Origin: Candidatus Fraserbacteria bacterium
GTDB lineage: Bacteria; Bipolaricaulota; Bipolaricaulia; RBG-16-55-9; DRXL01
Reading direction: 5' to 3'
Length of the DNA: 64,000 nt
NCBI GenBank assembly: GCA_037440025.1
Contig: JBBIUX010000002.1
Location: 82,975 to 146,974, forward strand
The position numbers and the translations under genes were made by a program. Positions within the stretch are counted from its first letter, which is position 1. Each line of letters starts with the position of its first letter. A model generated the notes under the pieces. That model was not told the origin of the DNA, did no database searches, and saw only the letters and a list, made by a program, of their open reading frames with translations. This document shows positions 20,227 through 46,319 of this stretch, in pieces.

Positions 20227-20748
20227 AAGCGTGTCTGGTTCGTCGGACTGCTCTGTCTAGCATGGAATGTGAACGCTTCGGCCCAAGAACGCGCGCCCAG
20301 TCTCGGCATCGCTACGAGTTGGATGGAACTAGACAACTTTCAGCCGGCGTTGCCGACGTTTACGATATCTCAGAAAGTTTTGCTGCTGTCGGTACGCGGG
20401 GAGACGCAGATTGAAACGGGGGTGGCGTTGCGCTTGGCCGGAGGCTGGGGCTTTGCGTTTGAGGGGCCTCCTGTGGGAATCGCCCATTATGAGACTGCCC
20501 TAGCTCTCAACTTCCCCTTTGGGCGGGCGAGCGCATCCATTGAGCTTGGCTCTGGGATTCTCCATTTGACGCAGAATGCCGAACAGGCGTGGCGGCTGAC
20601 GGGCTGGGTCGGTGCTGGAGGGAGATTTTCGCTCGTCTCAAAAATATCTGTCTTCTTTGACGTCGTGCCCTTGGTGCTGCTCGACTTCAGCCAACCAAGC
20701 CTGCCGCGGGTTTGGAGCTATCGTGGCGGGGCGCTGTGGCGGTTTTAG
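20227..20748 (+). CDS. Secreted hypothetical protein
   Basis: Start at MKRVWFVGLLCLAWNVNASAQE (signal peptide). The track N-extension is rejected. Confidence 0.5.
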   Translation, partial: KRVWFVGLLCLAWNVNASAQERAPSLGIATSWMELDNFQPALPTFTISQKVLLLSVRGETQIETGVALRLAGGWGFAFEGPPVGIAHYETALALNFPFGRASASIELGSGILHLTQNAEQAWRLTGWVGAGGRFSLVSKISVFFDVVPLVLLDFSQPSLPRVWSYRGGALWRF

Positions 20749-22619
20749 CTTGCCCGCCGCACGCGAACGGTTCCCCCCTGCTTGTGAGCTTCATAAATTC
20801 TCTCCGCGGGCTCGCTTCCGCGGACTAACTTAATACTCCCCGCGCGCGAGACCGACCCGATGAAGACGGGCTCGCCGTCTACTACGATTTCGATATTGCG
20901 CCCGCGCAGACTGGGGTCTAAGTCCACAATCACGTGCCGGTCGCTCACTTCTATGTCTATATCTTGATGGAGCGTCACCTCCATCTCGTCGTAGGAACGG
21001 ACATCAAGCCCGATGCCCAGCTCGGCTTCGAGCTCACGAATTCGGCTGCCCCCGCGGCCTAAGATCACGGGAATCTGGTCTTCGTCAACATAAAGAGTTG
21101 CTTGGTTGTCCGAGCGTATCTCGACAGTGAACCCGCCGCGCACCACCTTGCGCAGCTCGTGTTCTAAAGCTTGCGTTGCTAACCGCCAGACAGGTTTCTC
21201 CGTAGCGACTTCCTTCACTGGCATCACCACAACCTGTTCACCGAAGCTGTAGATTTCATAGACCAACCCTTTGGACTCGAATTCCCTGATCTCGATCACC
21301 GGGCGAGCCAAGTCTGAATCTCCCATGCCGCTGGGCACTTTCACTGTAAACTCGACTTCATAGATCTCTTTCACGTCACCGGCTTCGATGAAGACGACCG
21401 TGTCCACGACTTGCGGGATCATCCCCAAATCAACGCGCCCAATGAGTCGTTGCACGGCGTCAATGCCACGCGTGGCGTGCACCACGCCGATCATCCCCAC
21501 GCCGGCCAAGCGCATGTCGGCAAAGACTTCAAAGTCTTCGTCCACGCGCATCTCGTCAAAAATTGTGTAGTCGGGTCGGACGAGCAATAAAACGTCGGCG
21601 GTCTTCTTCATCTCACCGTTGAGGGCTGTATACTGGGTGATCTCGTCGGAGAGCTCTAGGTCTCTGGGTTTCTCCATTGTTTTAAGAATCCAGCCTGCTT
21701 CTTGGAGATACTCAGCTATCCCCTGGACAAACGTAGACTTGCCTGCCCCCGGTGCCCCGGAGACGAGCACGCCGCGCGAGCGTTCGCGCATGCGCTCCTT
21801 CAGCAAACCAGCATGACTATATTCATCGAGCTTTTTGTGAACGATGGGTCGAACGATAGTGATTTCTAGCGCGTCACTGAAGGGCGGGCGGGCAATGGCG
21901 ACTCGCAGATTTTTGAGCTGTATCACGGTGCTCCCGCCCGCATCCATCTCGATGAACCCGTCGGGATGTCCCTTGGCGACTTCGACGATTTCCCGGGCAA
22001 CTCGTTCCAGCTCTTTTTCCGTCATCAGTTCTTCTTTGAGCGGGACGATCTTCATCCGGCCGGGAGCGCCCCGTTTGGCCTTAGGGCGGGTCTTGGCCCG
22101 CAGGTGCACCGACATCGTTTGCTCATCGAAAAACTGCATGATTTGGAGCTGGTCGAGCCCACGGGCTCCTGCGGCGGCCCCCAAGAAGCGTGTCGGCAAC
22201 CCTTGGGCTTCGCTGACTAAAGACTGGCTGCGGCTGCTGGTGACGAGAACAGCGTCTTCTTCTTCAGCGACAGCGCGCACCATCGCGTGAATCTCGCCGG
22301 TCTCCGCAAGGCGCAACGGGTCGAACCGTGGCCGATCTCCCTTGAACACCAACTCGATCTGGCCTGCCCACGCGAGCTGTTGCATCTGTTTCAGTTCATT
22401 GAGGCCGGCATACCCCGTCTCTTGCCCACGCACAGCTTGGGCTTCCAATAACGCGAGCACAGCATGGGGAACGATAAAAACAGCTTTAGGGAATTTGTTA
22501 TTACGAATTTCTTCAGTGATGCGACCATCAACAATGATGCTCGCATCCAAGACATATCGTTCGGCTCTTGCAGCGTCTTCGTTTGGCAAAGCCTCTTTAC
22601 GAGGTCTAGCTCCAGGCAT
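20745..22619 (-). CDS. PIN domain - PhoH/PilT-like P-loop ATPase - KH domain protein (COG1855-like)
   Basis: N-terminal PIN (...YVLDASIIVDGRI...), central Walker A GAPGAGKST, and C-terminal KH (...VILGRGGSRIRELEAELG...). Confidence 0.7.
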   Translation of the reverse strand: MPGARPRKEALPNEDAARAERYVLDASIIVDGRITEEIRNNKFPKAVFIVPHAVLALLEAQAVRGQETGYAGLNELKQMQQLAWAGQIELVFKGDRPRFDPLRLAETGEIHAMVRAVAEEEDAVLVTSSRSQSLVSEAQGLPTRFLGAAAGARGLDQLQIMQFFDEQTMSVHLRAKTRPKAKRGAPGRMKIVPLKEELMTEKELERVAREIVEVAKGHPDGFIEMDAGGSTVIQLKNLRVAIARPPFSDALEITIVRPIVHKKLDEYSHAGLLKERMRERSRGVLVSGAPGAGKSTFVQGIAEYLQEAGWILKTMEKPRDLELSDEITQYTALNGEMKKTADVLLLVRPDYTIFDEMRVDEDFEVFADMRLAGVGMIGVVHATRGIDAVQRLIGRVDLGMIPQVVDTVVFIEAGDVKEIYEVEFTVKVPSGMGDSDLARPVIEIREFESKGLVYEIYSFGEQVVVMPVKEVATEKPVWRLATQALEHELRKVVRGGFTVEIRSDNQATLYVDEDQIPVILGRGGSRIRELEAELGIGLDVRSYDEMEVTLHQDIDIEVSDRHVIVDLDPSLRGRNIEIVVDGEPVFIGSVSRAGSIKLVRGSEPAERIYEAHKQGGTVRVRRAS

Positions 22620-22890
22620 ATTTCTCCCCCAAGAACACGGCAACTTTTTCTAAAAACTTCTGATCTTTCCCGGTAAACGCGTCAAGTGTGTCGCTGTCAA
22701 TGTCAATCTCTCCGACGACTTTTGAGTTGCTGAAAATGGGGACATAGTAAGACACATGATCTCGTAGAAGAGTGACCGTTTTGTGCAGGGCCGTCTCGAA
22801 ATCCGCTTGGTTGATCTCCTGGCGTAGCACGCTCAATAAGTCCATATTCCCTCCAGAACAAGCATAGCAAGGACTGACGAGTGCGCGCAA
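22606..22890 (-). CDS. Short GAF-like protein resembling only the C-terminal half of free Met-(R)-sulfoxide reductase (possible remnant)
   Basis: ...YYVPIFSNSKVVGEIDIDSDTLDAFTGKDQKFLEKVA resembles the fRMsr C-terminus. The ORF can be at most about 96 aa because gatA ends at 22897. Confidence 0.4.
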   Translation of the reverse strand: MRALVSPCYACSGGNMDLLSVLRQEINQADFETALHKTVTLLRDHVSYYVPIFSNSKVVGEIDIDSDTLDAFTGKDQKFLEKVAVFLGEKYAWS

Positions 22891-30091: not shown

Positions 30092-32110
30092 ATGGCGTTC
30101 GCCTGGACTCCTACACCCGAGTACATCGAGCACAGCAACATCTGGCGCTTCATGCAGAAATATAATATCACAGACTACGCCGAGCTTGTCCGACGCTCGA
30201 CCGACGAGATCGAATGGTTCTGGGACGCCATCGTCAAAGAGTTGCAAATCGAGTTCTTCACACCCTACAGACAAGTCTTAGACGTCTCCCAGGGGATCCC
30301 GTGGGCCAAGTGGTTCGTCGGCGGGAAGATCAATATTGCCCACAATTGCGTAGATAAGCATGCTCACGCTCGCCCAGAGAAGATCGCGCTCATCTGGGAG
30401 GGGGAAGACCGAAGCGTCCGGCGGCTCACCTACCGAGAACTCTACGAGCAGACGAATCGCTTGGCCAACGCCCTCAAGAGACTGGGTATCGTGAAGGGAG
30501 ATCGTGTCGGGATCTTTATGCCCATGCTGCCCGAGACGGTCATGGCTCTCTTAGCGTGCGCCAAGATTGGTGCGATCTGTACCCCGATCTTTTCGGGTTT
30601 TGGCGCTCACGCCGTGGCCGCACGGCTGAATGACTGTGAGGCCAAGCTCCTGATCACGGCTGAGAGCTTCTCGCGCAAGGGAGCGCGCATCGAGATGGGC
30701 AAGATCGCCCAAGAGGCCGTCAGGCTCAGCCCGACGGTAGAGCATCTGATTGTCTGTGAGCAGCGGGCCCTCACCCCCGACCCGGACCTAACCCCAACCC
30801 CTTCCCTAACTAAGGGAAGGGGCTCCCCTCCCTCTTTAGGGGAGGGGCTGGGGGAGAGGTCAAGGGAAGGGGGCCAGGGGGGTAGGTCGGTCAGATGGCA
30901 CGAGCTCACTCAGCGAGAACCTTCAGAATGCCCCACAGAGCAGACAGACTCCGAAGACCCGTTTATGATCATCTATACGTCGGGGACGACGGGCCGGCCC
31001 AAGGGCGCTGTGCACGTTCATGGGGGATTTTTGGTGAAGATCGCTCAAGAAGTGGCCCATCAAGTCGATCTCCATCCCGAAGATATTCTCTACTGGGTGA
31101 CGGACATGGGTTGGATCATGGGGCCCTGGGAGGTCGTGGGCGGGTTGGCCTTGGGTGGCACAGTCTTTCTCTATGAGGGAGCACCGGACTATCCCCACGT
31201 AGACCGATTATGGGAGATGGTCGAGCGCCATAAGATCTCTATTTTGGGTATTTCGCCGACGCTGATTCGGGCGCTGATGAAGTTCGGCGAAGGTCCGATC
31301 AAAAAGCATAATCTCAGCAGTCTGAGAATTTTAGCTTCGACGGGGGAGCCGTGGAACCCCGCTCCGTGGCTATGGTTCTTTGAGCACGTCGGCGGCAGGC
31401 GCTGTCCTATTATTAATCTTTCCGGAGGGACGGAGGTCGGGGCGTGCTTCTTATCGCCCTTGCCCATTACGCCCTTAAAACCCTGTGCCTTGGTCGGCCC
31501 GGCGTTGGGGATGGCTGTAGACGTCTTCGACGCGGACGGCCATCCGTTGCGTGGCGGCGTTGGGGAGTTAGTCTGTAAAAAGCCTTGGCCGGGGATGACT
31601 CGCGGGGTCTGGAAGGACCCGGAGCGATATATTCAGACCTATTGGTCGCGCTGGGAGAACGTCTGGGTGCATGGGGACTGGGCTTCGATTGACGCGGACG
31701 GCTTGTGGTATCTGCACGGGCGCAGTGACGATACGATAAAAATTGCGGGGAAGCGTCTTGGGCCGGCGGAGATCGAGTCTGTGTTGGTGGGCCATCCAGG
31801 AGTGGCCGAGTCGGCAGCCATCGGCGTACCGCACGAATTGAAGGGTGAAGCCATCTGGTGCTATGCCGTTTTGAGGCCAGGCTATGAGCCCAATGACGCT
31901 TTGAGGAAGGAGCTACGCGAGCGGGTCATAGAAGCCTTGGGCAAGTCCTTTGCGCCGGAGCAGATAAAATTTGTCCAAGAGCTGCCCAAGACGCGCAACG
32001 CCAAGATTCTCCGCCGGGCGATCCGCGCGAAAGTTTTGGGCCAAGAGTTGGGCGATCTTTCTAATCTTGAGAACCCTCAGGCGTTGGAGGAGATCGCTCA
32101 AGCTGTGTGA
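30092..32110 (+). CDS. acs: Acetyl-CoA synthetase-like AMP-forming acyl-CoA synthetase
   Basis: 672 aa with the AMP-binding motif IIYTSGTTGRPKG and ACS-like N- and C-termini. A low-complexity insertion of about 35 aa is encoded by a palindromic repeat. Confidence 0.85.
   Translation: MAFAWTPTPEYIEHSNIWRFMQKYNITDYAELVRRSTDEIEWFWDAIVKELQIEFFTPYRQVLDVSQGIPWAKWFVGGKINIAHNCVDKHAHARPEKIALIWEGEDRSVRRLTYRELYEQTNRLANALKRLGIVKGDRVGIFMPMLPETVMALLACAKIGAICTPIFSGFGAHAVAARLNDCEAKLLITAESFSRKGARIEMGKIAQEAVRLSPTVEHLIVCEQRALTPDPDLTPTPSLTKGRGSPPSLGEGLGERSREGGQGGRSVRWHELTQREPSECPTEQTDSEDPFMIIYTSGTTGRPKGAVHVHGGFLVKIAQEVAHQVDLHPEDILYWVTDMGWIMGPWEVVGGLALGGTVFLYEGAPDYPHVDRLWEMVERHKISILGISPTLIRALMKFGEGPIKKHNLSSLRILASTGEPWNPAPWLWFFEHVGGRRCPIINLSGGTEVGACFLSPLPITPLKPCALVGPALGMAVDVFDADGHPLRGGVGELVCKKPWPGMTRGVWKDPERYIQTYWSRWENVWVHGDWASIDADGLWYLHGRSDDTIKIAGKRLGPAEIESVLVGHPGVAESAAIGVPHELKGEAIWCYAVLRPGYEPNDALRKELRERVIEALGKSFAPEQIKFVQELPKTRNAKILRRAIRAKVLGQELGDLSNLENPQALEEIAQAV
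30770..30895. repeat. GC-rich nested palindromic element (copy in-frame inside acs)
   Basis: Hairpins CCCCTTCCC-taactaa-GGGAAGGGG and CCCCTCCC-tcttta-GGGGAGGGG, with outer CCGGACCTAACCCC / GGGGGGTAGGTCGG. Translated as ...TPTPSLTKGRGSPPSLGEGLGERSREGGQGG.... Confidence 0.6.
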
Positions 32111-32232
32111 AAGCAGGGGGCACGGTGCGCTATGCTCTCTAAGCAGCTCTTCCATACTCATGGGGCGTGAGTCGTTGAGCATGAGCATCATACCTCCTAG
32201 GATTTCGACTCACGCCGCCTGGGGCAACCCCC

Positions 32233-32290
32233 CTGCTCAGGCTCATCTTGCATGAGAAAGAAGGGCGGGCTTCAGGCTCATCTTGCGTGA
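32233..32290 (+). repeat. Direct repeats CAGGCTCATCTTGC(A/G)TGAGA, two copies 38 bp apart, spanning the start of the first paralog gene
   Basis: Copies at 32233-32252 and 32271-32290. The second contains the TTG start of ORF 32283. Confidence 0.5.
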
Positions 32291-32783
32291 GACAAGACTA
32301 TCGTTAGGGTGGGTCGGCGGCCTCTCCCAGACGTCGCAGATCGTCACCATCAACGTCAGCCAATCGCTCTATCTGGACTGCTCAGCCTCGGCAAACATCA
32401 CCTATACCGTCACTCAGAGCAATATCGAGGGCTCACAACCGTTCAACATCGGGACGTGGAGCTGCAACGTGGACTCGCTGACGAATTTCACATTGAGCGC
32501 CGATATGACCATGACGTCTACAGCAGATATTCTCAATTCGAGTGCTGATGATTTCTCCGAGACCTGTACGACAGCTTCTGGCGGCGGCACTCCAATCTGT
32601 GGCGCGGGCGGCACCTTTGGCCCGATCACCCTGGGCAGCGGCGGCAATACTGCTGGGAGTTTAGGCGCAGTTCTTTCAGGGAACGTCTGGCTCAACGTGA
32701 GCGACTGGGATGTCAAGTCCATCCCGCCAACACGAAGCGTCAGCGGGACGATCAATTACTCCGTGTCAGACTCGACACCATAG
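32283..32783 (+). CDS. Small paralog 1 of a secreted-protein triad (degenerate N-terminus, no intact signal peptide)
   Basis: TTG start. Shares QSLYLDC, W(S/G)CNVD, the ADDF...C pair, WDV and the C-terminal GTINYSVSDSTP motif with paralogs 2 and 3. Its N-terminus aligns only to the end of the paralog-3 signal peptide. Confidence 0.5.
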   Translation: MRETRLSLGWVGGLSQTSQIVTINVSQSLYLDCSASANITYTVTQSNIEGSQPFNIGTWSCNVDSLTNFTLSADMTMTSTADILNSSADDFSETCTTASGGGTPICGAGGTFGPITLGSGGNTAGSLGAVLSGNVWLNVSDWDVKSIPPTRSVSGTINYSVSDSTP

Positions 32784-32813
32784 CGCAAAAATCTTGAAAG
32801 TAGGGCATGCATC

Positions 32814-33368
32814 ATGACCAGAAAGCTTCTCATCGCGCTGCTCGTCGGGGCTATCGGCTTATCTCTGTCCTCGGGGCTAGTCGCCCAGCAGAACGTGACT
32901 ATCGAGATCGGCCAGTCGCTCTATCTTGACTGTGTGCCTCCGGTTCAGCCGGGAGATATTTATTATATCATCTTGCAGGCTGATATCGAAGCGCCACAGC
33001 CCATTGACATCGGCGACTGGGGCTGCAACGTTGATGCCGTGACACAATACAGACTGAACTCTCAGTTCACGTCCTTCTCTGCGCCCTATGTTGTCAACGC
33101 CGACACATCCGACTTCACGGCTGACTGCTATAGTGCTGACGACTTCGGCGCTTGTGCACCAAATCAGTCGCTCACGATGGGCGATGTAGACCCCAACACG
33201 CGACGCGGCACGGGCTACAACACCGCCGGCACAGATGGCGCGGACTTTGAGGGCGATATTTTCGTGAACATGGGCGTCGGCCCCGCAGGCTGGGATGTTC
33301 AGTCCTCACAGCTGCCCGTCTTTGTGACCGGCACGATCACCTACACGGTGACGGATACTACTCCCTAA
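32814..33368 (+). CDS. Small secreted paralog 2
   Basis: Signal peptide MTRKLLIALLVGAIGLSLSSGLVAQQ, two Cys pairs, and C-terminal VTGTITYTVTDTTP. Confidence 0.6.
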   Translation: MTRKLLIALLVGAIGLSLSSGLVAQQNVTIEIGQSLYLDCVPPVQPGDIYYIILQADIEAPQPIDIGDWGCNVDAVTQYRLNSQFTSFSAPYVVNADTSDFTADCYSADDFGACAPNQSLTMGDVDPNTRRGTGYNTAGTDGADFEGDIFVNMGVGPAGWDVQSSQLPVFVTGTITYTVTDTTP

Positions 33369-33405
33369 CGAGCTTAAGTATCGCTAGAATCTGGGGGAGA
33401 TTTTT

Positions 33406-33930
33406 ATGAGGACTCCAAGGGTCACCGTGGTGCTGATGCTCTTGACCGCGCTGCTCCCCTGGGGCGGCTTGGCTCAGACGAGCCAAACTGTGCGCGTGAC
33501 GCTCGTCATCCCCCAGCCGCTCTTCATCCAAGCCGTTATCCCATCTATTACGGTCGAGATCACGCCCTTGGAGATCGAGGGGCCGCAGCCGTTCAAGATC
33601 GGCGATTGGCACGTCAACATTGACGCTCTGACGCCCTACCGGCTCAACTCGTCGGTCGTGACCGTAGACACGAATATCTTCGATGCCGGGCCTGAAGACT
33701 TTTCCACCGATTGCGATTTCGCTGACGACTTCGGCGTCTGCACGGATAAGACGTCGCTGTCGGAGCCCGATCCCCAGAACCGCCGCGGCTTTGGGGAGAA
33801 CACCGCAGGGCTCAATGGCGCAGACTTTAGGGGCGAGATCTTCTTGGATATTCGCTCGTGGGACGTGAGCACGCTGCCGGGATTCTATCTCGGTGTCATT
33901 CTCTTTACGACGACAGACACGACACCTTAG
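33406..33930 (+). CDS. Small secreted paralog 3
   Basis: Signal peptide MRTPRVTVVLMLLTALLPWGGLAQTSQ, the Cys pair TDC...GVC, and C-terminal ...TTTDTTP. Confidence 0.6.
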   Translation: MRTPRVTVVLMLLTALLPWGGLAQTSQTVRVTLVIPQPLFIQAVIPSITVEITPLEIEGPQPFKIGDWHVNIDALTPYRLNSSVVTVDTNIFDAGPEDFSTDCDFADDFGVCTDKTSLSEPDPQNRRGFGENTAGLNGADFRGEIFLDIRSWDVSTLPGFYLGVILFTTTDTTP

Positions 33931-33939
33931 GAGTAGAGC

Positions 33940-34863
33940 ATGAAGCTCATACGTGCCTTGGGATTGCTTGTGCTCGTGCTCACCGTGGGGAGCTTGCTTG
34001 TGCAGGCCGTCTCCCAAGGCCCAAACTATGCCAGCACTTTTTCTAATGTAGGGTGGACAGACCCCTCTAACGCTACGGGCACCCCAGATAATCTCTGCGC
34101 GTCGCGCAGCGCTCCCGGAGGAGCATTAGATCTCACAGGTTTTGGCTTCACCATCCCCGATGCAGCCGTCATTCAGGGGATCACCGTCGAAGTGAAATTT
34201 GCTGGCTCTGATACTACTGATGGCGTACGAGCGCGCCTGCTCAAGGGCGGATCTCCCGTGGGCAATACCCAAGATATTTTCGGGGTCGCAGGGCAGACCG
34301 ACTGCAGCACCAGTGCCTTCCGCACAGTGGGCAGCCCCACGGATCTCTGGGGCACCACCTGGACCGCCACAGAGATCAACGCCGCAAACTTTGGGGTGCG
34401 CCTGTCAAAACTCGGTTCCACAGGCACTTCGTATGTGGACTCCGTGCGCATCACGGTTGAATACCAAGACGTGATGACCGTGACCGTGATCTCTGGCGGG
34501 GCGCTCTCGGCCAACGTCAATAGCGCTTCCGTCGTCGAGTCCGGCAAGGTCGAGTTTCTCAGTCAGACGACGCTGCAAGTCGTCTCGACGAAGAACTGGC
34601 GCGTCCGGGCCGTTGCATCGGTGACAAGCTACCCCCCTGGAGCCGATGACCCCACGGGCAACGCCGTCGAAGTGAAGAATTATCTGGGGAATTTCGAGCC
34701 TGCGGGGAGCCTCCCCGGCGTCATCGTGGCCACGGGTACACCGACCCCAGCCGGCGGCGTGACCGTGAACGTTGATATGCGGGTGATGCTCGATGATTTT
34801 GGCGACGGCAAGATCGGCTCGTATCAGTTTACCGTGAATTACTCTATCGAAGAAGATATCTGA
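33940..34863 (+). CDS. Secreted two-domain protein; the C-terminal domain shows WxL-like features
   Basis: Signal peptide MKLIRALGLLVLVLTVGSLLVQA. C-terminal domain has ...STKNWRVRAVAS... and terminal ...YQFTVNYSIEEDI. AGGAG RBS. Confidence 0.55.
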   Translation: MKLIRALGLLVLVLTVGSLLVQAVSQGPNYASTFSNVGWTDPSNATGTPDNLCASRSAPGGALDLTGFGFTIPDAAVIQGITVEVKFAGSDTTDGVRARLLKGGSPVGNTQDIFGVAGQTDCSTSAFRTVGSPTDLWGTTWTATEINAANFGVRLSKLGSTGTSYVDSVRITVEYQDVMTVTVISGGALSANVNSASVVESGKVEFLSQTTLQVVSTKNWRVRAVASVTSYPPGADDPTGNAVEVKNYLGNFEPAGSLPGVIVATGTPTPAGGVTVNVDMRVMLDDFGDGKIGSYQFTVNYSIEEDI

Positions 34864-34875
34864 AGGGGTGTCTCT

Positions 34876-35700
34876 ATGAGCAAGAGCGTGGTGCGATGGA
34901 GCTTTCTCGCTGTATTGCTGTGGGCCAGCTCGCTCATTGTGCAGGCCCAGATCGGCATATCTGCTCTCAGTGTGGACGTCAATCTCCCTCCCGGAGGCAG
35001 TTTTACCGGAGCGTTTGAAGTGATCAACAGCAGCGATCAGCCCCGCGAGTTCACCGTCGAACTGAAAGATTATGAGAGAAATATCGAGGGCGGCTTGGTC
35101 CTCCTCAATCCGGGGACGCACCAGCGCTCGCTCGCCAAGTTCTTATCGTTTACCCCGGCGCAGTTTGCGCTTGCCCCCAAGCAGAAACAGCTTATCACAT
35201 TCAAGATCGAGATTCCTGCGACGAAGCGTGGGCCGCACTGGGCGGCGCTCGCTGTGACGAGTCCAGCGCCGTCGTCGGGCGCTCAGCCGCCGCCTCCGCC
35301 GCCGGGACAGCAGCCTTCTATTCCCGTCAGTATCGGCACAGCCGAACAATTTGTCGTCAAAATTCGCCATACTGATCCAACAAACGCTGTCAATCGCGGT
35401 CGAATTGTAAGCGTACAGACGTTGCTGCCGGAGCGCGACAAGCCCTTGCGCATCGTCGTCGAGTACGAGAACACCGGGACAACATTTCAAATAGCAAAGA
35501 CGCAGCTACGCATTGTGAACGCCAATGGGGAGATCGTTGTGCAGAAAGCAGCCGAAGAAATGGCGATGCTCCCCGGCGGCAAGCGACGCTTGGAGATCCC
35601 CGTGACGGAGAGATTGCCGTCGGGAACGTACTTGGCGTTGGTGATCATTGATTTTGGCGGCGACTTTTTAGTTGCCGGGCAGGTGCGGTTTCAGATTTGA
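34876..35700 (+). CDS. Secreted protein with two Ig-like beta-sandwich domains joined by a Pro-rich linker (DUF916/DUF3324-like, or chaperone-like)
   Basis: Signal peptide, domain 1 (...FTVELKDY...LITFKIEIP...), linker SPAPSSGAQPPPPPPGQQP, domain 2 (...IVVEYENTGTTFQIAKTQLRIVNANGEIVV...LPSGTYLALVIIDFGGD...). No C-terminal membrane anchor. Confidence 0.55.
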   Translation: MSKSVVRWSFLAVLLWASSLIVQAQIGISALSVDVNLPPGGSFTGAFEVINSSDQPREFTVELKDYERNIEGGLVLLNPGTHQRSLAKFLSFTPAQFALAPKQKQLITFKIEIPATKRGPHWAALAVTSPAPSSGAQPPPPPPGQQPSIPVSIGTAEQFVVKIRHTDPTNAVNRGRIVSVQTLLPERDKPLRIVVEYENTGTTFQIAKTQLRIVNANGEIVVQKAAEEMAMLPGGKRRLEIPVTERLPSGTYLALVIIDFGGDFLVAGQVRFQI

Positions 35701-35709
35701 AAAAATATA

Positions 35710-35796
35710 CCCCCTCACCCCGGATGGAGGTTCGCAAGTTCGCGAGTTCACGGGTTCGAACTCGTGAACCTTCGAACCCCCTTGAGGGGTGAGGGT
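35710..35796. repeat. GC-rich nested palindromic element (intergenic copy)
   Basis: CCCCTCACCCC ... inner palindrome GAGTTCACGGGTTCGAACTCGTGAAC ... GGGGTGAGGGTG. Confidence 0.55.
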
Positions 35797-35813
35797 GCAT
35801 CAGGGAGGCTTTC

Positions 35814-38744
35814 ATGGTGAAGAGAGCGTGTGCGGGGATTGCGCTCGTGCTCATGGCGGTTTGCACAGCCCTTGCCCAAGGGCAGCCCATTGAGCTGATT
35901 GCGCCGCCGCCACGCTCGACCCTGCCCGGCGATATCGTCACCCTCACGTTTTTGGCCATCAACCGCGGAACAGCAGCCGATACTTATCTCTTCTCGGTAG
36001 ACGCACCGGCAACCTTTCAGGTCATCGGGGCGATCCCGCCGCTGACGCTCGCCCCCGGCGCTCAGGAGCCGGTCTTCGTCACCCTGCTCGTTTTGCAAGA
36101 GGCGCCCGCTGGAACGTACACTATCGCGCTCGAAGCCGTCTCTCAGGGCGACCCTGCTGTGAGAGCCCGCGCCCAGACGACGATCACCATCGAGAAGACC
36201 GCCGGGGTCATAGTGCGTGCCCCCGATTCCCAAGAAGTCGACCCCGGCAGCGAAGTGATTCTCTCGTTCAGTGTGACCAACCGGGGCAACGTTATAGACG
36301 CATTCCGGCTGGAGGCTTTCACGCCACGGGGCTTTGCGACGCGCGTTGAGCCGGGGCTGGTGGAGCTGCTGCCGGGCGAGACGCGCTCGGTCTTGGTTAC
36401 TGTAAGAATTCCCCAAGACGCCCCGGCGGGGTTTGAGCCGGTCACGCTTACGGCGGTCTCGCTGCGCAGCGAAGGGGTACAAGCCAACGGTGCGACGACG
36501 CTGATCATTCTGCCGCCGGAAGCTGCCAAAGTCCCCACAGCGCTTCACTTGCTCGCCCCCGCGGAGCTCGCCGTGAGTGCTAACGTCGCCTTGAGCAGCA
36601 GTACCTTGACCCCGCTCATCTCGTTTCTGACCTACGCGACGCTGCCCGAAGAGCAACGCTTTAGTTTCAAGATCACAATCTCGGATATTGTGCGATCTCA
36701 GATTCCTTCTGGCTTGCCCATCAGCGTGAAAGAGTTTTTCTTCACCTCGCAGCGCGAGACGTTCTTTGTGCATCTGGGGGATCTCCCGCAGTCGCCCTTG
36801 ATCTATAACGCGCTGCCGCGACGCGGCGTCGAGCTGGGATTCACGAATTTCTTTTCGCTGATGGCGACGTTTGAAGACCAAGATGGGGATTTCACCCAAG
36901 AGCAGAAAGCCCTAGCTTTGAACTTCAACGGGGCGAGCGTGCGGGCGTCGCTGGCACGTCTCAGCGTCTTCGGTGCTACTCCCTACACGCTCACGGCAGC
37001 GAACTTCCGCAGCGGCGTGCTCGCTGCCGAAGGAGCCGTCGCCGAAGTGAGTGCTGGCCTGCGCCGCATGTTCTTCTTGCGTGCCGCTCCCTCGTTCTTC
37101 GGGGTGACATTGGGTGGGGAATACTTGCGAGTTGAACCGGACTTCCCTAGCTTGACCGGTGTGCCCGCTGTCATATCTGATACCCAGATCTGGTCGCTCT
37201 TCGGCACCGGATCGGCCGGAGCACTGGCGTTCGGTGCCCTGGTCTCCGGCAAGAGAACCGATCTCTTCAGCCAGCCAACTATCCAAGAGCTCACCGCTAT
37301 CACATCGCAAGGGCGGCTTATTATAAGAAGTTTCTTACTGGGGTTGCCCAGCGTCTTCTTCGACGTCAAATTCATCTCTCGACGGAGCAACGATCCCCCG
37401 TTTGCGCCCTTGAGCACCGACGAGGATATCAAATCTCTCACGATTGCTGACATCGCCAGCCCCATCAGCTATGTGCTGACTTTCCAGAGTAATCTCTTCC
37501 GGGACAATCTCAATCCCGCTAATAATACTGATACGTTCGAGTTCTCCAGCTCGCTCATTACGCGCCCGTTGCTAGGCGTTGAAGGGCTTTCGCTTAATCT
37601 GAGTGCCAAGGGCACTTTCCAAGTCGACCCTAATACGAACACCACGCTCGATCATCAGGTGACGGTCATCGGGCGCTTGGCGTTCACGACCGCTCGCGTC
37701 TCCATGTTCTTGCTTTTGGGGCTGAACACGAATCTGCTCTACTCGTTCTTCTCGAGCTACTTCGGGTCGTTCAGCGCGACGCTCTTCGGCCCGGTGAGCG
37801 CCTCGTTCTCGTTTGCCTTCACCGAGCCGTCGTCGCTCAGCTTTACTCTCGAAGTGCGCACGAAGTTCGCCATGCCCTTCGAGTCTGTGATCATCAAGGG
37901 GCGCGTCGAGGGCTATCTCTTCGTAGACTTAAACAACAACGGCCAACGCGATCAGGGCGAACCTGGCGTCAAAGACGCGCTCTTACGATTAGACAATCAA
38001 CTCGCTCGCACCGATGCCCAAGGGTACTTCAGGTTCCCGCCCGTCGCCCCCGGCTCATACAGAGTCGAGATCGCACGAGCGCCCGTGGGCCTCGTCCCGA
38101 CCGTGCCTCTGCCCGTCTCAGTGGCGGTCGCCGTCGGACAAGTAGTCTCTTTAGAAATCCCCATGCGCTCGGTGGGCATCGTCACTGGACGAGTCTTCGA
38201 CGACAAGAACCGCAACGGCAAAGCCGATCCTGATGAACCCGGTTTAGCCAATGTGCGCGTCTTCGCCGTCGGCGCAACAAGCGTCGAAACCCGCTCCGGC
38301 GCCAACGGCCAGTACGTCTTGCAGGTGCCGCCGGGCAGCTACACCGTGACGTTGGATCGAACGACCCTGCCCAAGCGCTATGAGCCGACGACGCCGCTCA
38401 GCGCGACCGTGACAGTACAAACCGGCCAGACGGTCACTCTAGATTTCGGCGCGTACGAAGTCCCGCGCCCGGTGCTCTTTGCCCCCATCGCTGACTTTAC
38501 GTTCACACTGGCTCAGCCCAGAGTCGGCGAGAGAGTGCTCTTCGACGCGTCGGCGTCTACAGACAGCGACGGCCAGATCGTGCGCTACGAGTGGGACTTC
38601 AACGGCGACGGCAAGCCCGATGCTGTGGGCAAGATCGTCGAGTGGACTTTCACCAGAGCGGGCGACTTCCCCGTCAAACTCACGGTCACGGACAACGACG
38701 ATCTCCAGAATTCTATTACCAAGACCGTCCCCGTGCGGCCATGA
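35814..38744 (+). CDS. Large secreted multidomain protein: N-terminal CARDB/DUF11-like Ig repeats, beta-strand-rich core, three Cna-B/SdrD-B-like domains, C-terminal PKD domain
   Basis: Signal peptide MVKRACAGIALVLMAVCTALAQG. Repeats with PG(T/S)Y...I...A.S. The central roughly 350 aa are rich in alternating F/S/T/L. Three ...DxNxNGxxDxGExG...TDAxGxYxF..PGxYxV... modules. ...RYEWDFNGDGKPDAVG...FPVKLTVTDNDDL... is a PKD domain. Confidence 0.65.
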   Translation: MVKRACAGIALVLMAVCTALAQGQPIELIAPPPRSTLPGDIVTLTFLAINRGTAADTYLFSVDAPATFQVIGAIPPLTLAPGAQEPVFVTLLVLQEAPAGTYTIALEAVSQGDPAVRARAQTTITIEKTAGVIVRAPDSQEVDPGSEVILSFSVTNRGNVIDAFRLEAFTPRGFATRVEPGLVELLPGETRSVLVTVRIPQDAPAGFEPVTLTAVSLRSEGVQANGATTLIILPPEAAKVPTALHLLAPAELAVSANVALSSSTLTPLISFLTYATLPEEQRFSFKITISDIVRSQIPSGLPISVKEFFFTSQRETFFVHLGDLPQSPLIYNALPRRGVELGFTNFFSLMATFEDQDGDFTQEQKALALNFNGASVRASLARLSVFGATPYTLTAANFRSGVLAAEGAVAEVSAGLRRMFFLRAAPSFFGVTLGGEYLRVEPDFPSLTGVPAVISDTQIWSLFGTGSAGALAFGALVSGKRTDLFSQPTIQELTAITSQGRLIIRSFLLGLPSVFFDVKFISRRSNDPPFAPLSTDEDIKSLTIADIASPISYVLTFQSNLFRDNLNPANNTDTFEFSSSLITRPLLGVEGLSLNLSAKGTFQVDPNTNTTLDHQVTVIGRLAFTTARVSMFLLLGLNTNLLYSFFSSYFGSFSATLFGPVSASFSFAFTEPSSLSFTLEVRTKFAMPFESVIIKGRVEGYLFVDLNNNGQRDQGEPGVKDALLRLDNQLARTDAQGYFRFPPVAPGSYRVEIARAPVGLVPTVPLPVSVAVAVGQVVSLEIPMRSVGIVTGRVFDDKNRNGKADPDEPGLANVRVFAVGATSVETRSGANGQYVLQVPPGSYTVTLDRTTLPKRYEPTTPLSATVTVQTGQTVTLDFGAYEVPRPVLFAPIADFTFTLAQPRVGERVLFDASASTDSDGQIVRYEWDFNGDGKPDAVGKIVEWTFTRAGDFPVKLTVTDNDDLQNSITKTVPVRP

Positions 38745-39469
38745 GAAAGAGCGTCCTCTTTGCGCTCGGCGGGGCCCTGATTTTCGTCGTCGTCGCTCTG
38801 TGGGCCTGGCAGAGATTTTCCGTGCAATACGAAGAGAGCGCCGGCCCGATCAGGGTCTCACCAGTGAAGACAACCGTACAGGGCGACCCCGACGACTTTG
38901 TGACCGTCGTCTTCACGCTGCGCAATCTCAGCGACCAAGAACGCTCTTACGAACTCTCCGTCGAAGCTCCGGAGGGCTGGACGCTGCTCGACGGGCTCTC
39001 GAGCATCGCTGTTGGCTCTCACGCTCAGCAAGAGATCTTTCTCACCATGCAGATCCCGCCGGGGACGCCGCCGGGACGCTATTGGCTCACGCTTCGTGCT
39101 CATAGCGATTCCGATTCCGCTGTCGGGAAAACTCAGATTGTCGTACGGGCTCGCGAGCGCCTCAAGCTTGCGCTCACTTCGTCTGATCTGATTGCCCGCC
39201 CTAATGAAGAGACGACTCTTGCATTGACAGTGACCAATCGTGGGAACGTCTCGGCTCGCGTCACGCTTGCAGTCACAGCGGCGCCGGTGGGGTGGCAGTT
39301 TCGGCTGCGCGAGGACTCTTTCGCGCTCGTGCCGGGCGAGAGTAAAGCTGTCGAACTGACTGTCAAGCCCTTGGCTGAGGCAGAGCTTGCGCCGGGGCGG
39401 TTCACGGTGCAGGCGACGTCCCCCTCCGCTCGCGACGAGCTCTCTCTTACGGTTGTGCTCTCGCCCTAG
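38741..39469 (+). CDS. N-terminally membrane-anchored protein with two CARDB/DUF11-like domains
   Basis: Start MRKSVLFALGGALIFVVVALWAW (TM anchor), ATGA overlap with the previous gene. Two repeats of ...PG.Y.L.L.A.S.... Confidence 0.55.
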   Translation: MRKSVLFALGGALIFVVVALWAWQRFSVQYEESAGPIRVSPVKTTVQGDPDDFVTVVFTLRNLSDQERSYELSVEAPEGWTLLDGLSSIAVGSHAQQEIFLTMQIPPGTPPGRYWLTLRAHSDSDSAVGKTQIVVRARERLKLALTSSDLIARPNEETTLALTVTNRGNVSARVTLAVTAAPVGWQFRLREDSFALVPGESKAVELTVKPLAEAELAPGRFTVQATSPSARDELSLTVVLSP

Positions 39470-42721: not shown

Positions 42722-43897
42722 ATGAAGCCCTCTCGGATCGCCTTAACTCTCTTCATCATCGTCGTCCTCCTCCTCCTCCCTTATGGGGCCCACGCTCAAG
42801 TGACCGGAACGCTCGGCATCTCCGCCGGTTGGCTCTCTCTGCCTCTATCGGAGTTAAATTCCCTGCTCCATGTGTATAACTATCCCGGCGTCAGTGAGCA
42901 CTTTTTCTCATTTGGGCTGCACACGATCTTGGGGGTGCATGACTTTCCTCTGCGGCTGGGGATTGGGGGGCAATTAGCCCTGGCCTTGCCAGAGCTAAGC
43001 AGCTCTCAAGAGCAAGGGGAGACAGCGTTCATCTTCCTCTATGGCGGGCTGGTCACCGAGCTCACACAGAGCATCGTTGGGCTGGGACAAGTCTCCGTCG
43101 GTTCCCTCGTGGGCATTGGCGGCGCGTTTCTCGAGCTCTCGCGATCTCGTCGTGACCTCACCACGTTTGATCATGCCCTCACTGAGCTCGTTCACGCCAC
43201 AGGGGAGCTCGCCCGTGGCTACTGGGTGGTGCAACCCTATCTGAGTGTCTCTGTGCCTGTCCCCATAGAGAAGGTAGACATCCAAGTGCCCAAAGGCAGA
43301 AGACTGCAAGGCAAGCCCGTCAATCCCGCACTGAGCCTGACCGTCGGGTATGTGTATGCCTTCCCGTGGAGCGGCTGGGGGATCAATAGTGAAGAGGGGG
43401 GCAATCTCAGCTGGCCCGGCCCACTCGATCGGCTCAGCGGCCCCACCGTGACCGTTGCTTTCACCATGGGCATCGAGAGCTTAATCCCCCCTCGCATCGT
43501 CATTGACTCTCTTCGTTATCGTGGTGACGATGAGGTCGTCACCTTGGGCAACGCGGGGCAGGGGGAGGTAGATCTCTCCGGGTGGCAGCTGTTTAGTAGC
43601 ACCTCGGAGCGCGAGCGGATCGCTCAGGCCTTTGTCTTTCCCCCAGGGTGCGTGGTGCCAGCAGGCGGGAGGGTGCGGGTGCACTCTGGACCTGCAGTCA
43701 CTGGGAAGACCAATGCCCCCTGTGGCCAAGCAGAGATCGATCTGTACGGGCCTTGGACTGGCGTGGACTCCCCAAGCGCTGAGGTCTGGGATGACCGCGC
43801 CGATCTTGCGTGGCTCCGCGATGCCTATGGCGAGGAAGTAGCCAGGTGTTCTTACAAAGCCAAACCGGAGCTGGATGCCACCGAGTGCCATAAGTAA
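42722..43897 (+). CDS. Secreted protein with C-terminal lamin-tail (LTD) domain
   Basis: Signal peptide MKPSRIALTLFIIVVLLLLPYGAHA. C-terminal ...VIDSLRYRGDDEVVTLGNAGQGEVDLSGWQLFSS...VFPPGCVVPAGGRVRVHSG... is LTD-like. Confidence 0.55.
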   Translation: MKPSRIALTLFIIVVLLLLPYGAHAQVTGTLGISAGWLSLPLSELNSLLHVYNYPGVSEHFFSFGLHTILGVHDFPLRLGIGGQLALALPELSSSQEQGETAFIFLYGGLVTELTQSIVGLGQVSVGSLVGIGGAFLELSRSRRDLTTFDHALTELVHATGELARGYWVVQPYLSVSVPVPIEKVDIQVPKGRRLQGKPVNPALSLTVGYVYAFPWSGWGINSEEGGNLSWPGPLDRLSGPTVTVAFTMGIESLIPPRIVIDSLRYRGDDEVVTLGNAGQGEVDLSGWQLFSSTSERERIAQAFVFPPGCVVPAGGRVRVHSGPAVTGKTNAPCGQAEIDLYGPWTGVDSPSAEVWDDRADLAWLRDAYGEEVARCSYKAKPELDATECHK

Positions 43898-45131: not shown

Positions 45132-46319
45132 ATGCTGAACGCTCGCAAATGGTTCGCTGTGTCAGCTGTTTTATTATTGTTATTGGTCTTCATCGTCGCC
45201 CTGGACAATTACAACCAAGAATGGAAACAGTATCAACGAGCGTATCTGACGAAAATCTTCACGGACAAAGCTAGAACAGAGAAGGGGTCGCTTTCGTTGC
45301 TCGATCAGCTCATGATCGCTGTCAATGCCGAAACGAACCTTCAGATCAAAAAAGTCGTCACCGAAGTGGGCCGTAGCGCCGACTTGTGTATGAGCTGCCA
45401 TGCCAATATTGGCGTTTCGGGTTTCGAGCGAGAGCCTCTCCGGGACTTACGAGAGACCCACAAAGATGTGGCAGTTGTTCAAGAGCTTCCGTTCGATCAG
45501 ATTGGCTGTACGGCGTGTCATGGGGGCAATGCTCTGGCGCTGCGCGCCGAGCCGGCCCACCACGAGATGCGCACACGGTTTGCTCAGATTTTTGAAGAGA
45601 GCATCGAAAAGCTGCACTCAGGGAGTTGGGTTGAGCGCCAGCGGGGGATCGAGCGCATCCGCTGGATGACCGCCAACGATTTCGGTTTTCTCTTCAATGA
45701 CCCTCAAGAGAAGCGCGACGAAGTCATTCAGAAGATCGTCGCCTGGTGGCAACTGCACAAAGACACTTTCTTGGTCGAAGGTTTTGGGGAGCGCAGTTCA
45801 CCCTTCCGTACTGAAAACCCTCAAGCAAACGTGATCGAGCAGCGCACCGACGTCGCGGTCACCGGCGAGCCGTTGCAGTTTGTCGGATCGGCGACCTGTG
45901 TCGCGTGCCATGGCTACCCAGAGATCAGCGATGTCTACATCCCTGAGTCGAGCAAGCAACATGTCGAGCGCTGGTTCCGAGAAGAGTTTATGACGAGTAC
46001 AAACCCCGAAGAGTACCAAGATCATCCGTTCATAGACCAAGAGACGCTCAAGACGATGGACGTGACTTGTGAGGCCTGTCACGGTCCGGGGAGCGAGTAT
46101 ACGAAACTGATGCAAAAGGGCATGGCTCTGGAAGCAGCAGGCCAGAGCGTGGATGCGGCAGCGCTGATCGTAAAGGCGAAAGAAATCGCGCGGGTCAATG
46201 CTCGCCAGAACATCAGCGAGCATGACCCTGCGACAGGGTATGCTCGCATCTGGGCGATCTTCGAACGCTTGCTTGACAAAGCCCTCGCCAGCAAAGGACA
46301 AGTCCAGCCGACCGAATGA
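45132..46319 (+). CDS. Membrane-anchored tetraheme c-type cytochrome
   Basis: N-terminal TM helix and four CxxCH motifs (CMSCH, CTACH, CVACH, CEACH). Confidence 0.7.
   Translation: MLNARKWFAVSAVLLLLLVFIVALDNYNQEWKQYQRAYLTKIFTDKARTEKGSLSLLDQLMIAVNAETNLQIKKVVTEVGRSADLCMSCHANIGVSGFEREPLRDLRETHKDVAVVQELPFDQIGCTACHGGNALALRAEPAHHEMRTRFAQIFEESIEKLHSGSWVERQRGIERIRWMTANDFGFLFNDPQEKRDEVIQKIVAWWQLHKDTFLVEGFGERSSPFRTENPQANVIEQRTDVAVTGEPLQFVGSATCVACHGYPEISDVYIPESSKQHVERWFREEFMTSTNPEEYQDHPFIDQETLKTMDVTCEACHGPGSEYTKLMQKGMALEAAGQSVDAAALIVKAKEIARVNARQNISEHDPATGYARIWAIFERLLDKALASKGQVQPTE

Follow-up and report, generated by a model that had tools for sequence, protein, structure and literature searches.

Seven adjacent genes in a Candidatus Fraserbacteria bacterium of the Bipolaricaulota raise the question of what kind of surface structure their products assemble. 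The genes, designated g1 to g7, occupy positions 32283 to 39469 of a 64,000-nucleotide stretch of contig JBBIUX010000002.1 (GenBank assembly GCA_037440025.1), the whole of which is referred to as the window. In the original prediction, made from the letters of the window, they were taken for a divergent, undescribed surface-assembly system that resembles both Csu-type chaperone-usher pili and WxL/Csc complexes and belongs to neither. That assessment was upheld: the seven-gene system is real, conserved, and undescribed. On balance we favor, if only slightly, the reading that it encodes a donor-strand surface fiber (pilus) of the Bipolaricaulota together with its own chaperone-like and usher-like machinery. 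The features of the locus are as follows (lengths in amino acids [aa]).

32283-32783, + strand: g1, open reading frame (ORF) for a small pilin-like paralog, 166 aa, TTG start
32814-33368, + strand: g2, small pilin-like paralog, 184 aa, with a signal peptide and two Cys pairs
33406-33930, + strand: g3, small pilin-like paralog, 174 aa, without the first Cys pair
33940-34863, + strand: g4, secreted two-domain protein, 307 aa, candidate tip subunit or adhesin
34876-35700, + strand: g5, secreted two-domain beta-sandwich protein, 274 aa, candidate periplasmic chaperone or scaffold
35814-38744, + strand: g6, multidomain protein, 976 aa, with a signal peptide, an immunoglobulin (Ig)-like pair, a putative beta-barrel, sandwich domains, and a PKD domain
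36558-37871, + strand: central region of g6 (residues 249 to 686), predicted transmembrane beta-barrel, candidate outer-membrane pore
38741-39469, + strand: g7, 242 aa, with an N-terminal membrane anchor and two NPCBM_assoc-type Ig domains

All seven ORFs read in one direction on the plus strand, and an independent gene call on a Logan contig gave seven identical products. The head-to-tail arrangement that had been described is thus correct, as are its finer details: purine-rich, Shine-Dalgarno-like stretches lie upstream of g2 to g6, and the single ATGA overlap is that of g6 and g7, with g7 translationally coupled to g6. A scan for promoters and terminators found nothing above chance. Signal-peptide-like hydrophobic N termini are present in g2 to g6, and the neighbors of the locus are housekeeping genes (glmS, acs, ftsH, and dxr). 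Pfam and NCBIfam scans covered all seven proteins and the members of their families; no match to the WxL, SCPU, fimbrial, PapD, Usher, or Peptidase_M73 families was obtained, g1 to g4 had no Pfam match, and no LPXTG protein is encoded in the locus.

The three small proteins are tandem paralogs, as had been claimed, being mutually 35 to 45% identical (BLASTP E values of 1e-23 to 4e-37), with g1 sharing 35 to 39% identity with g2 and g3. A 24-sequence alignment of small proteins bore out the conserved Cys pairs and C-terminal motif that had been noticed in them, the latter reading G(T/V)ITYTVTDTTP. In g2, the mature N-terminal strand QQNVTIEI is conserved and the C-terminal motif is GTITYTVTDTTP. 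When the profile of the g1-g3 family (A2) was searched with HMMER against 1.84 billion cluster representatives, only 20 clusters were found, and the family is therefore narrow; this search offered no bridge to any annotated family, and a profile search of the PDB with the same family gave no match.

Structure prediction was more informative. The model of mature g2, built with 54 sequences, has a predicted local distance difference test (pLDDT) score of 94.4 and a predicted template modeling (pTM) score of 0.86. Searching the PDB with this model in Foldseek returned the TasA fiber (8aur_A) as the top match (E = 4.7e-4, probability 1.0), with TLP-1a at a probability of 0.97 and TLP-1b at a TM score of 0.51; the other top matches were the PapG pilin domain, CS20, FimA/FimI, SafA, archaeal bundling pili, the 0406 thread, cannulae, and PapH. 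The small proteins are thus predicted to have a pilin-like fold. TLP-1a and TLP-1b (Tsinghua Lotus Pond; CryoSeek structures 9ikj and 9ikk in the PDB) are 8-nm tubular fibrils from pond water, solved by cryo-electron microscopy, whose producer and genes were not known at the time of their description; in their tubular helix the N-terminal strand of one protomer completes another (n+4) by donor-strand exchange (PMC11494351). The subunits share the protomer fold of TLP-1a/b, and their mature N terminus (QQNVTIEIGQSLYLDC) resembles the TLP-1 donor strand (QNVTVTMDLQPVLQL). Hydrophobic residues alternate along this strand, and its conservation exceeds that of the remainder of the protein (0.98 versus 1.17 bits). 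Among solved structures, the TLP-1 fibril is the closest relative of the subunits, a relationship that the original prediction had not recognized.

The fourth protein, g4, extends this family. It consists of an N-terminal domain (approximately residues 25 to 170), for which no relatives were detectable, and a pilin-like C-terminal domain (approximately residues 170 to 307), which occurs as a stand-alone protein of 152 to 166 aa beside g5 homologs in three other loci (L012, L013, and L029). An additional domain preceding a pilin domain is also the layout of the tip adhesins FimH and PapG. The g4 profile (A4) matched only TLP-1a/b in the PDB (E = 0.037 and 0.058). A further profile (A5), which combines the g4 C-terminal domain with its stand-alone relatives and the paralogs of locus L015, likewise matched only TLP-1a/b (E = 0.0018 and 0.012). 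In hhalign, the g1-g3 family aligned with A5 at 96.7% (E = 3.4e-10, 138 columns), which places g1, g2, g3, and the C-terminal half of g4 in one superfamily. The link emerged only once the stand-alone relatives of the g4 C-terminal domain and the L015-type proteins had been added; against full-length g4, the g1-g3 family matched in the last strand only.

In g5, a Pro/Gln-rich segment separates two beta-rich halves, the linker that had been pointed out earlier. As a single sequence, g5 had only a sub-threshold DUF916 match, and the individual scores within its family stayed below the Pfam gathering threshold (best PF06030 match, 1.2e-4), with no match to PF11797. A 20-sequence g5 profile gave a single significant match in the PDB, EfmWxLIP1 (9i1y_A; E = 1.3e-4), the next being at E = 0.41. 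In hhalign, the g5 family aligned with four WxL-interacting proteins (WxLIPs) at 92.7% (E = 4.3e-7) over 205 columns spanning DUF916 and DUF3324, with residues 29 to 254 of g5 opposite residues 41 to 263 of the WxLIP. The four comparison genes came from Lactobacillales plasmids, the Pfam assignment having been checked for one (L032) and taken from the record annotation for the other three. By these profile alignments, g5 is a WxLIP (DUF916 plus DUF3324) homolog across both domains. PapD-like chaperones (PF00345/PF02753) were not matched by g5 or by its 22 and 20 homologs at E values of up to 1, and PapD-like chains were absent from the g5 profile searches of the PDB, a comparison at the sequence level.

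In one respect, g5 departs from this family. Its signal peptide is its sole hydrophobic segment, there is no C-terminal transmembrane helix, and more than 20 g5 homologs all end at the same position, without the C-terminal helix of WxLIPs; the kinship with DUF916/DUF3324 proteins and the missing anchor, both suggested originally, have thus been confirmed together. According to an AlphaFold prediction, a hairpin strand of the WxLIP enters its WxL partner (PMC10599100). In the alignment, the Pro/Gln-rich linker of g5 falls opposite the WxLIP polar loop, which we read as the region predicted to insert.

The domain content proposed for the 976-aa protein was recovered by Pfam, which assigned to g6 two NPCBM_assoc/FixG_C-type Ig domains, two SdrD_B domains, one CarboxypepD_reg domain, and one PKD domain, with no match across the central region of approximately 460 aa. 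The AlphaFold2 model, of medium confidence (pLDDT 75.3), shows a signal helix followed by two Ig-like domains (residues 26 to 232), then 26 antiparallel strands of 7 to 15 residues joined by mostly short and some longer loops (residues 249 to 686), and finally three beta-sandwich domains (residues 696 to 885) and the PKD domain (residues 890 to 975), these last at a pLDDT of 84 to 91. The region previously described only as a beta-rich core is indeed beta-rich; it models, with medium confidence, as an outer-membrane beta-barrel of approximately 26 strands, which had not been recognized. This barrel is the least conserved part of g6, a homolog search with the central region returned just eight fragments, and strand amphipathicity did not separate the putative barrel strands from those of the sandwiches. 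The last protein, g7, carries a hydrophobic segment at residues 1 to 26 and two NPCBM_assoc domains, in keeping with the anchored protein with two CARDB-like domains that had been foreseen. It shares 30% identity with residues 38 to 198 of g6 (E = 2e-18) and is a membrane-anchored paralog of the N-terminal Ig pair of g6. In NCBIfam, g6 and g7 had only weak similarities to choice-of-anchor-T and PACE-CTERM S-layer proteins. A role as glycoside hydrolase accessory proteins was rejected because none of the proteins has a catalytic domain, and NPCBM_assoc, CarboxypepD_reg, and PKD domains are Ig-like modules of a generic kind.

Homologs of g2 and g5 were identified only in Candidatus Bipolaricaulota/Acetothermia, including metagenome-assembled genomes (MAGs) labeled "Fraserbacteria." At least 12 genome or metagenome loci, at 65 to 92% identity, have all of g1 to g7 in this order between glmS/acs and ftsH, and a core of small secreted proteins, g5, and g6 persists to approximately 30 to 35% identity in loci L010, L012, L013, L015, L027, L030, and L031. 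Two small genes with g4 and g5 are found in L010 and L024, where a g6-like gene lies upstream in inverted orientation; g7 was seen in L010 and not in L024, whose contig stops inside g6. Stand-alone proteins of 152 to 174 aa that resemble the C-terminal half of g4 precede g5 and g6 in L012 and L013; six tandem small paralogs precede g5, g6, and g7 in L015 and L027; and small ORFs accompany g5 and g6 at approximately 35% identity in L030 and L031. The loci of another lineage (L028 and L029) retain just a g5-like protein with dockerin repeats at its end and small proteins around it. The number of small paralogs per locus therefore ranges from 1 to 6, and the most constant pair is g5 and one small secreted protein, with g5 always adjoining a small pilin-like gene, the minimal loci L028 and L029 included. 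As the g1-to-g7 order recurs in close loci and the core in divergent ones, the gene set is conserved as a unit. The original prediction was to be abandoned if the members proved to be scattered among related genomes; because they are kept together in related MAGs and metagenomes, it stands.

Two groups of these loci have features of their own. The six tandem pilin-like paralogs in the "Fraserbacteria"-labeled loci (L015, 5638 to 9947; L027, 1653 to 5956), which take the place of the three small genes, are 184 to 322 aa long; several of them contain an N-terminal Cys-rich motif (CSNEGTxAGSESCD) and an LWTGGNxxGG loop, and the final, 322-aa paralog looks like a tandem domain duplication. In the GC-rich lineage (L029, 5860 to 7503; L028, 1557 to 4666), the repeats at the end of the g5-like proteins are of the dockerin type I/EF-hand kind (Pfam E = 2e-5). 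These proteins are flanked by pilin-like proteins of 161 to 166 aa with a literal W-x-L (SWKLQV and NWVLSS), followed by a protein of 820 to 930 aa that appears by eye to be a right-handed beta-helix with a binding domain, and no g6-like barrel is present. These loci may represent a monoderm or cohesin-docked variant of the module.

The nature of the host had not been recognized originally. Published work supports a diderm, toga-bearing phylum: Bipolaricaulota genomes encode BamA-like proteins (PMC6092417), and both an S-layer and a toga-like outer membrane were described for the first and only isolate (J31, "Thermolongumtoga alcanivorasis"), whose toga ends carry a few pili (bioRxiv 10.1101/2025.11.21.689855), whereas a genome survey in 2018 found no pilus genes in the phylum (PMC6092417). 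A donor-strand pilus in such a cell could be built as follows. All seven products would be exported by Sec. The fiber subunits g1 to g3, as beta-sandwich pilins of the TLP-1/TasA class, would polymerize by donor-strand exchange, the N-terminal strand of each (Q-x-V-T-I-x-I) completing the fold of its neighbor, and in the presumed order of subunits g4 would be the tip adhesin, like FimH or PapG. Before polymerization, g5 would hold the subunits in the periplasm by inserting a strand from its polar, Pro-rich loop region. In the topology proposed for g6, the barrel, flanked by Ig-like domains, would provide the outer-membrane exit and assembly platform and be a functional analog of the usher. Anchored in the inner membrane, g7 may capture subunits or hand them over.

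Several points weigh against this reading. Donor-strand insertion, whether between subunits or between g5 and a subunit, is something we infer. The sequence links to TLP-1 are weak (E = 0.0018 to 0.06) and none comes from the g1-g3 profile itself; hhalign of A5 against the partial TLP-1a sequence gave 23.5%, and that of A2 was negative. Firmicute WxLIPs are viewed as scaffolds and not as polymerization chaperones. The barrel model has a pLDDT of 55 to 83 and a pTM of 0.39 from an alignment of 25 sequences, and TonB-dependent receptors and porins are as close to it as ushers are, if not closer. SdrD_B and PKD domains are typical of extracellular stalks, and an even number of strands would place those of g6 on the same side as its N-terminal Ig pair. 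Finally, g1 of this genome may be poorly exported. Orthologs of g1 are 172 to 179 aa long and have a full signal peptide, with TTGACA-N17-TATAAT and AAGGAGG upstream; the g1 of the window has a 24-nucleotide deletion relative to them in the hydrophobic core of the signal peptide and lacks both the promoter and the AAGGAGG site.

The alternative that survives best, although we regard it as unlikely, is a nonpolymeric display complex similar to those of WxL clusters. Here, g5 would be a scaffold, the small proteins and g4 would be bound by strand insertion and shown at the surface, and g6 would be an outer-membrane anchor with adhesive SdrD_B and PKD domains, which are typical parts of adhesins; no long fiber would be formed. 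The homology of g5 to WxLIPs in both domains fits such a complex, and in WxL clusters, too, one WxLIP is encoded together with small proteins and a larger multidomain protein (PMC9772566, PMC10599100). The C-terminal G-x-Y-x-x-T-I-x-Y-x-I/V of the small proteins and g4 also resembles the distal WxL motif, but beyond this motif no WxL homology of the small proteins was detectable. No match to PF13731 was obtained for g1 to g4 or for 24 and 12 family members at E values of up to 10, and when the small proteins were compared in hhalign with five small WxL proteins from real clusters, the probabilities were 0.35% and 1.2%, with only the C-terminal motif aligning. These sequence negatives are weak, since in a control real small WxL proteins scored just 28 to 29 bits and barely passed PF13731. 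Structural comparison pointed the same way, the solved WxL chain 9i25_A being outside the top matches of the small proteins, where polymerizing pilins dominate. WxL membership of the small proteins is thus not supported, and of the likeness to WxL loci put forward originally, it is the part concerning g5 that stood. A display complex is further disfavored by the absence from g5 of the membrane anchor that makes WxLIP a scaffold, by the lack of an LPXTG protein or sortase, and by the three tandem paralogs with a two-domain variant, an arrangement usual for major, minor, and tip pilins.

As a separate observation, some "small WxL" proteins of Lactobacillales plasmids (L032 to L035) have Y for W in the distal motif. 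This motif reads AGTYSGTIDYNIS in L032, and g4 ends in almost the same sequence (IGSYQFTVNYSIE). One such Y-type small WxL protein had no PF13731 match, so that the Pfam model seems not to cover the whole of the WxL family.

Ranked below the display complex, and less likely again, is a structural or uptake module of the toga that makes no fibers. In such a module g6 would be a porin or transporter with periplasmic and surface domains, and the small proteins would be substrate-binding, lectin-like, envelope, or S-layer-associated proteins whose pilin-like fold is coincidental. The weak S-layer similarities of g6 and g7, the position of the locus amid glmS, acs, ftsH, and dxr, and the S-layer and specialized toga ends of the Bipolaricaulota (10.1101/2025.11.21.689855) would all suit it. 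However, no TonB box or plug domain was found, and the locus contains no transporter or energizing genes. That pilin-fold genes stay tightly coupled to the gene for a WxLIP-like protein in very divergent loci points instead to a protein-protein assembly function, and the number of small paralogs varies as it does with pilin genes. Lastly, a highly diverged classical member of the archaic Csu-type chaperone-usher systems, with SCPU pilins, a PapD-like g5, and an usher g6, is very improbable and was rejected, as the resemblance in gene count, sizes, and order to csuA/B-A-B-C-D-E is offset by the failure of all family membership tests (no SCPU, PapD_N/C, or Usher match for any protein in Pfam/NCBIfam, even at E values of up to 1 to 10), by the demonstrable WxLIP kinship of g5, and by the approximately 26 strands, other domain set, and undetected plug and usher N- or C-terminal domains of g6.

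Returning to the donor-strand pilus, its components are, as far as sequence comparison reaches, not detectably homologous to the classical chaperone-usher ones. The small proteins did not match the fimbrial or SCPU pilin families (PF00419 and PF05229), nor did g6 match Usher (PF00577), which comprises a 24-strand barrel, a plug, and N- and C-terminal periplasmic domains. In place of these, there are approximately 26 strands in g6, with no plug or usher terminal domains recognized, and a WxLIP homolog as candidate chaperone instead of a PapD-like one; g7 has no counterpart in chaperone-usher pili. It is conceivable, although we consider it doubtful, that the operon is the prototype of an independent chaperone-usher-type pathway with TLP-1-class pilins, a WxLIP-class chaperone, and a nonusher barrel platform of approximately 26 strands.

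Each of the other comparable systems differs in turn. TLP-1 protomers are approximately 236 aa long with long extra loops, whereas the mature subunits here are 140 to 160 aa, and sequence similarity is marginal. The TasA-type set comprised the TasA fibers of Bacillus subtilis and the archaeal TasA-like filaments (ABP, 0406 threads, and cannulae). TasA, the top Foldseek match of g2, also has jelly-roll/Ig-like subunits that polymerize by donor-strand exchange, and TapA assists it by strand complementation (PMC10151520); the Peptidase_M73 domain of the TasA/camelysin family was not found in the small proteins, and no SipW signal peptidase or TapA is encoded in the operon. WxL/Csc clusters likewise join a WxLIP-type protein, small secreted beta-rich proteins, and a larger multidomain protein. 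However, they have a WxLIP with a transmembrane helix, an LPXTG protein, and a monoderm Firmicute host, none of which applies here, where an outer-membrane barrel protein is predicted and the host is diderm and of another phylum. The Pam pili of the candidate phyla radiation (CPR) combine donor-strand pilins, a tip pilin, and two-domain chaperones in one operon and were read by their authors as analogous to, and distinct from, chaperone-usher assembly (10.64898/2026.03.03.709456). Compared by description only, they have chaperones that are PapD/FimC-like by structure and anchored by a C-terminal helix that g5 lacks, no outer membrane or barrel, and pilins of another two-domain architecture. 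This precedent makes a donor-strand pilus plausible, and the general concept is not new.

Were the operon the prototype of such an independent pathway, it would provide the first genetic and mechanistic context, and a testable one, for the orphan TLP-1 class of environmental fibrils. It would also identify the pili of the Bipolaricaulota, supplying candidate genes for those on the first isolate of a phylum in which earlier surveys had found none. For Firmicute WxLIPs (DUF916/DUF3324), it would imply an origin from strand-donating pilus chaperones, or an ancestor in common with them, and retention in membrane-anchored form in lineages that have no outer membrane. Such a link between a poorly understood family of gut Firmicutes and pathogens and pilus-type strand complementation would redirect the study of WxL clusters. 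Donor-strand fiber assembly is supported in three ways, by the classical chaperone-usher pathway, by proteolytic type V assembly, and in a chaperone-light manner (TasA, archaeal threads, and CPR Pam pili). The locus would add a fourth combination in a deep-branching, toga-bearing phylum, in which the logic of a chaperone and an outer-membrane pore was reached with other families or has diverged beyond recognition.

The region upstream of g1 (window positions 32111 to 32300) is not homologous to the promoter region of the orthologous loci. Within it, a 21-nucleotide sequence (tcaggctcatcttgc[a/g]tgaga) is directly repeated, with one mismatch, at 32237 to 32257 and 32272 to 32292, the latter copy containing the TTG start of g1. 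Approximately position 32230 of the window is where a public Logan contig from this organism begins. Either a genuine rearrangement or deletion, disabling the export and expression of g1, or an assembly join could account for the upstream region.

Other genes of the window also have features of note. A secreted 391-aa protein (42722 to 43897, + strand) has a C-terminal lamin-tail domain (PF00932, E = 8e-14), whereas its N-terminal half of approximately 230 aa, in which Gly, aromatic, and hydrophobic residues abound, matches no family; the protein is conserved beside ftsH in some relatives (L006 and L007) and may be another envelope or outer-membrane protein. A 632-aa protein (20745 to 22643, - strand) has a weak match to T2SSE-type secretion ATPases (E = 8e-8), and a 395-aa protein (45132 to 46319, + strand) has weak CXXCH multiheme-cytochrome-type matches (Paired_CXXCH_1, E = 6.6e-6; Cytochrome_CBB3, E = 3.9e-6); in relatives, neither gene accompanies the locus. 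The acetyl-CoA synthetase-like gene at 30092 to 32110 (+ strand) contains a low-complexity stretch rich in Pro, Gly, Ser, and Glu (…PDPDLTPTPSLTKGRGSPPSLGEGLGERSREGGQGGRS…) within its AMP-binding domain, and as its orthologs range from 638 to 673 aa, the insertion seems to be strain variable.

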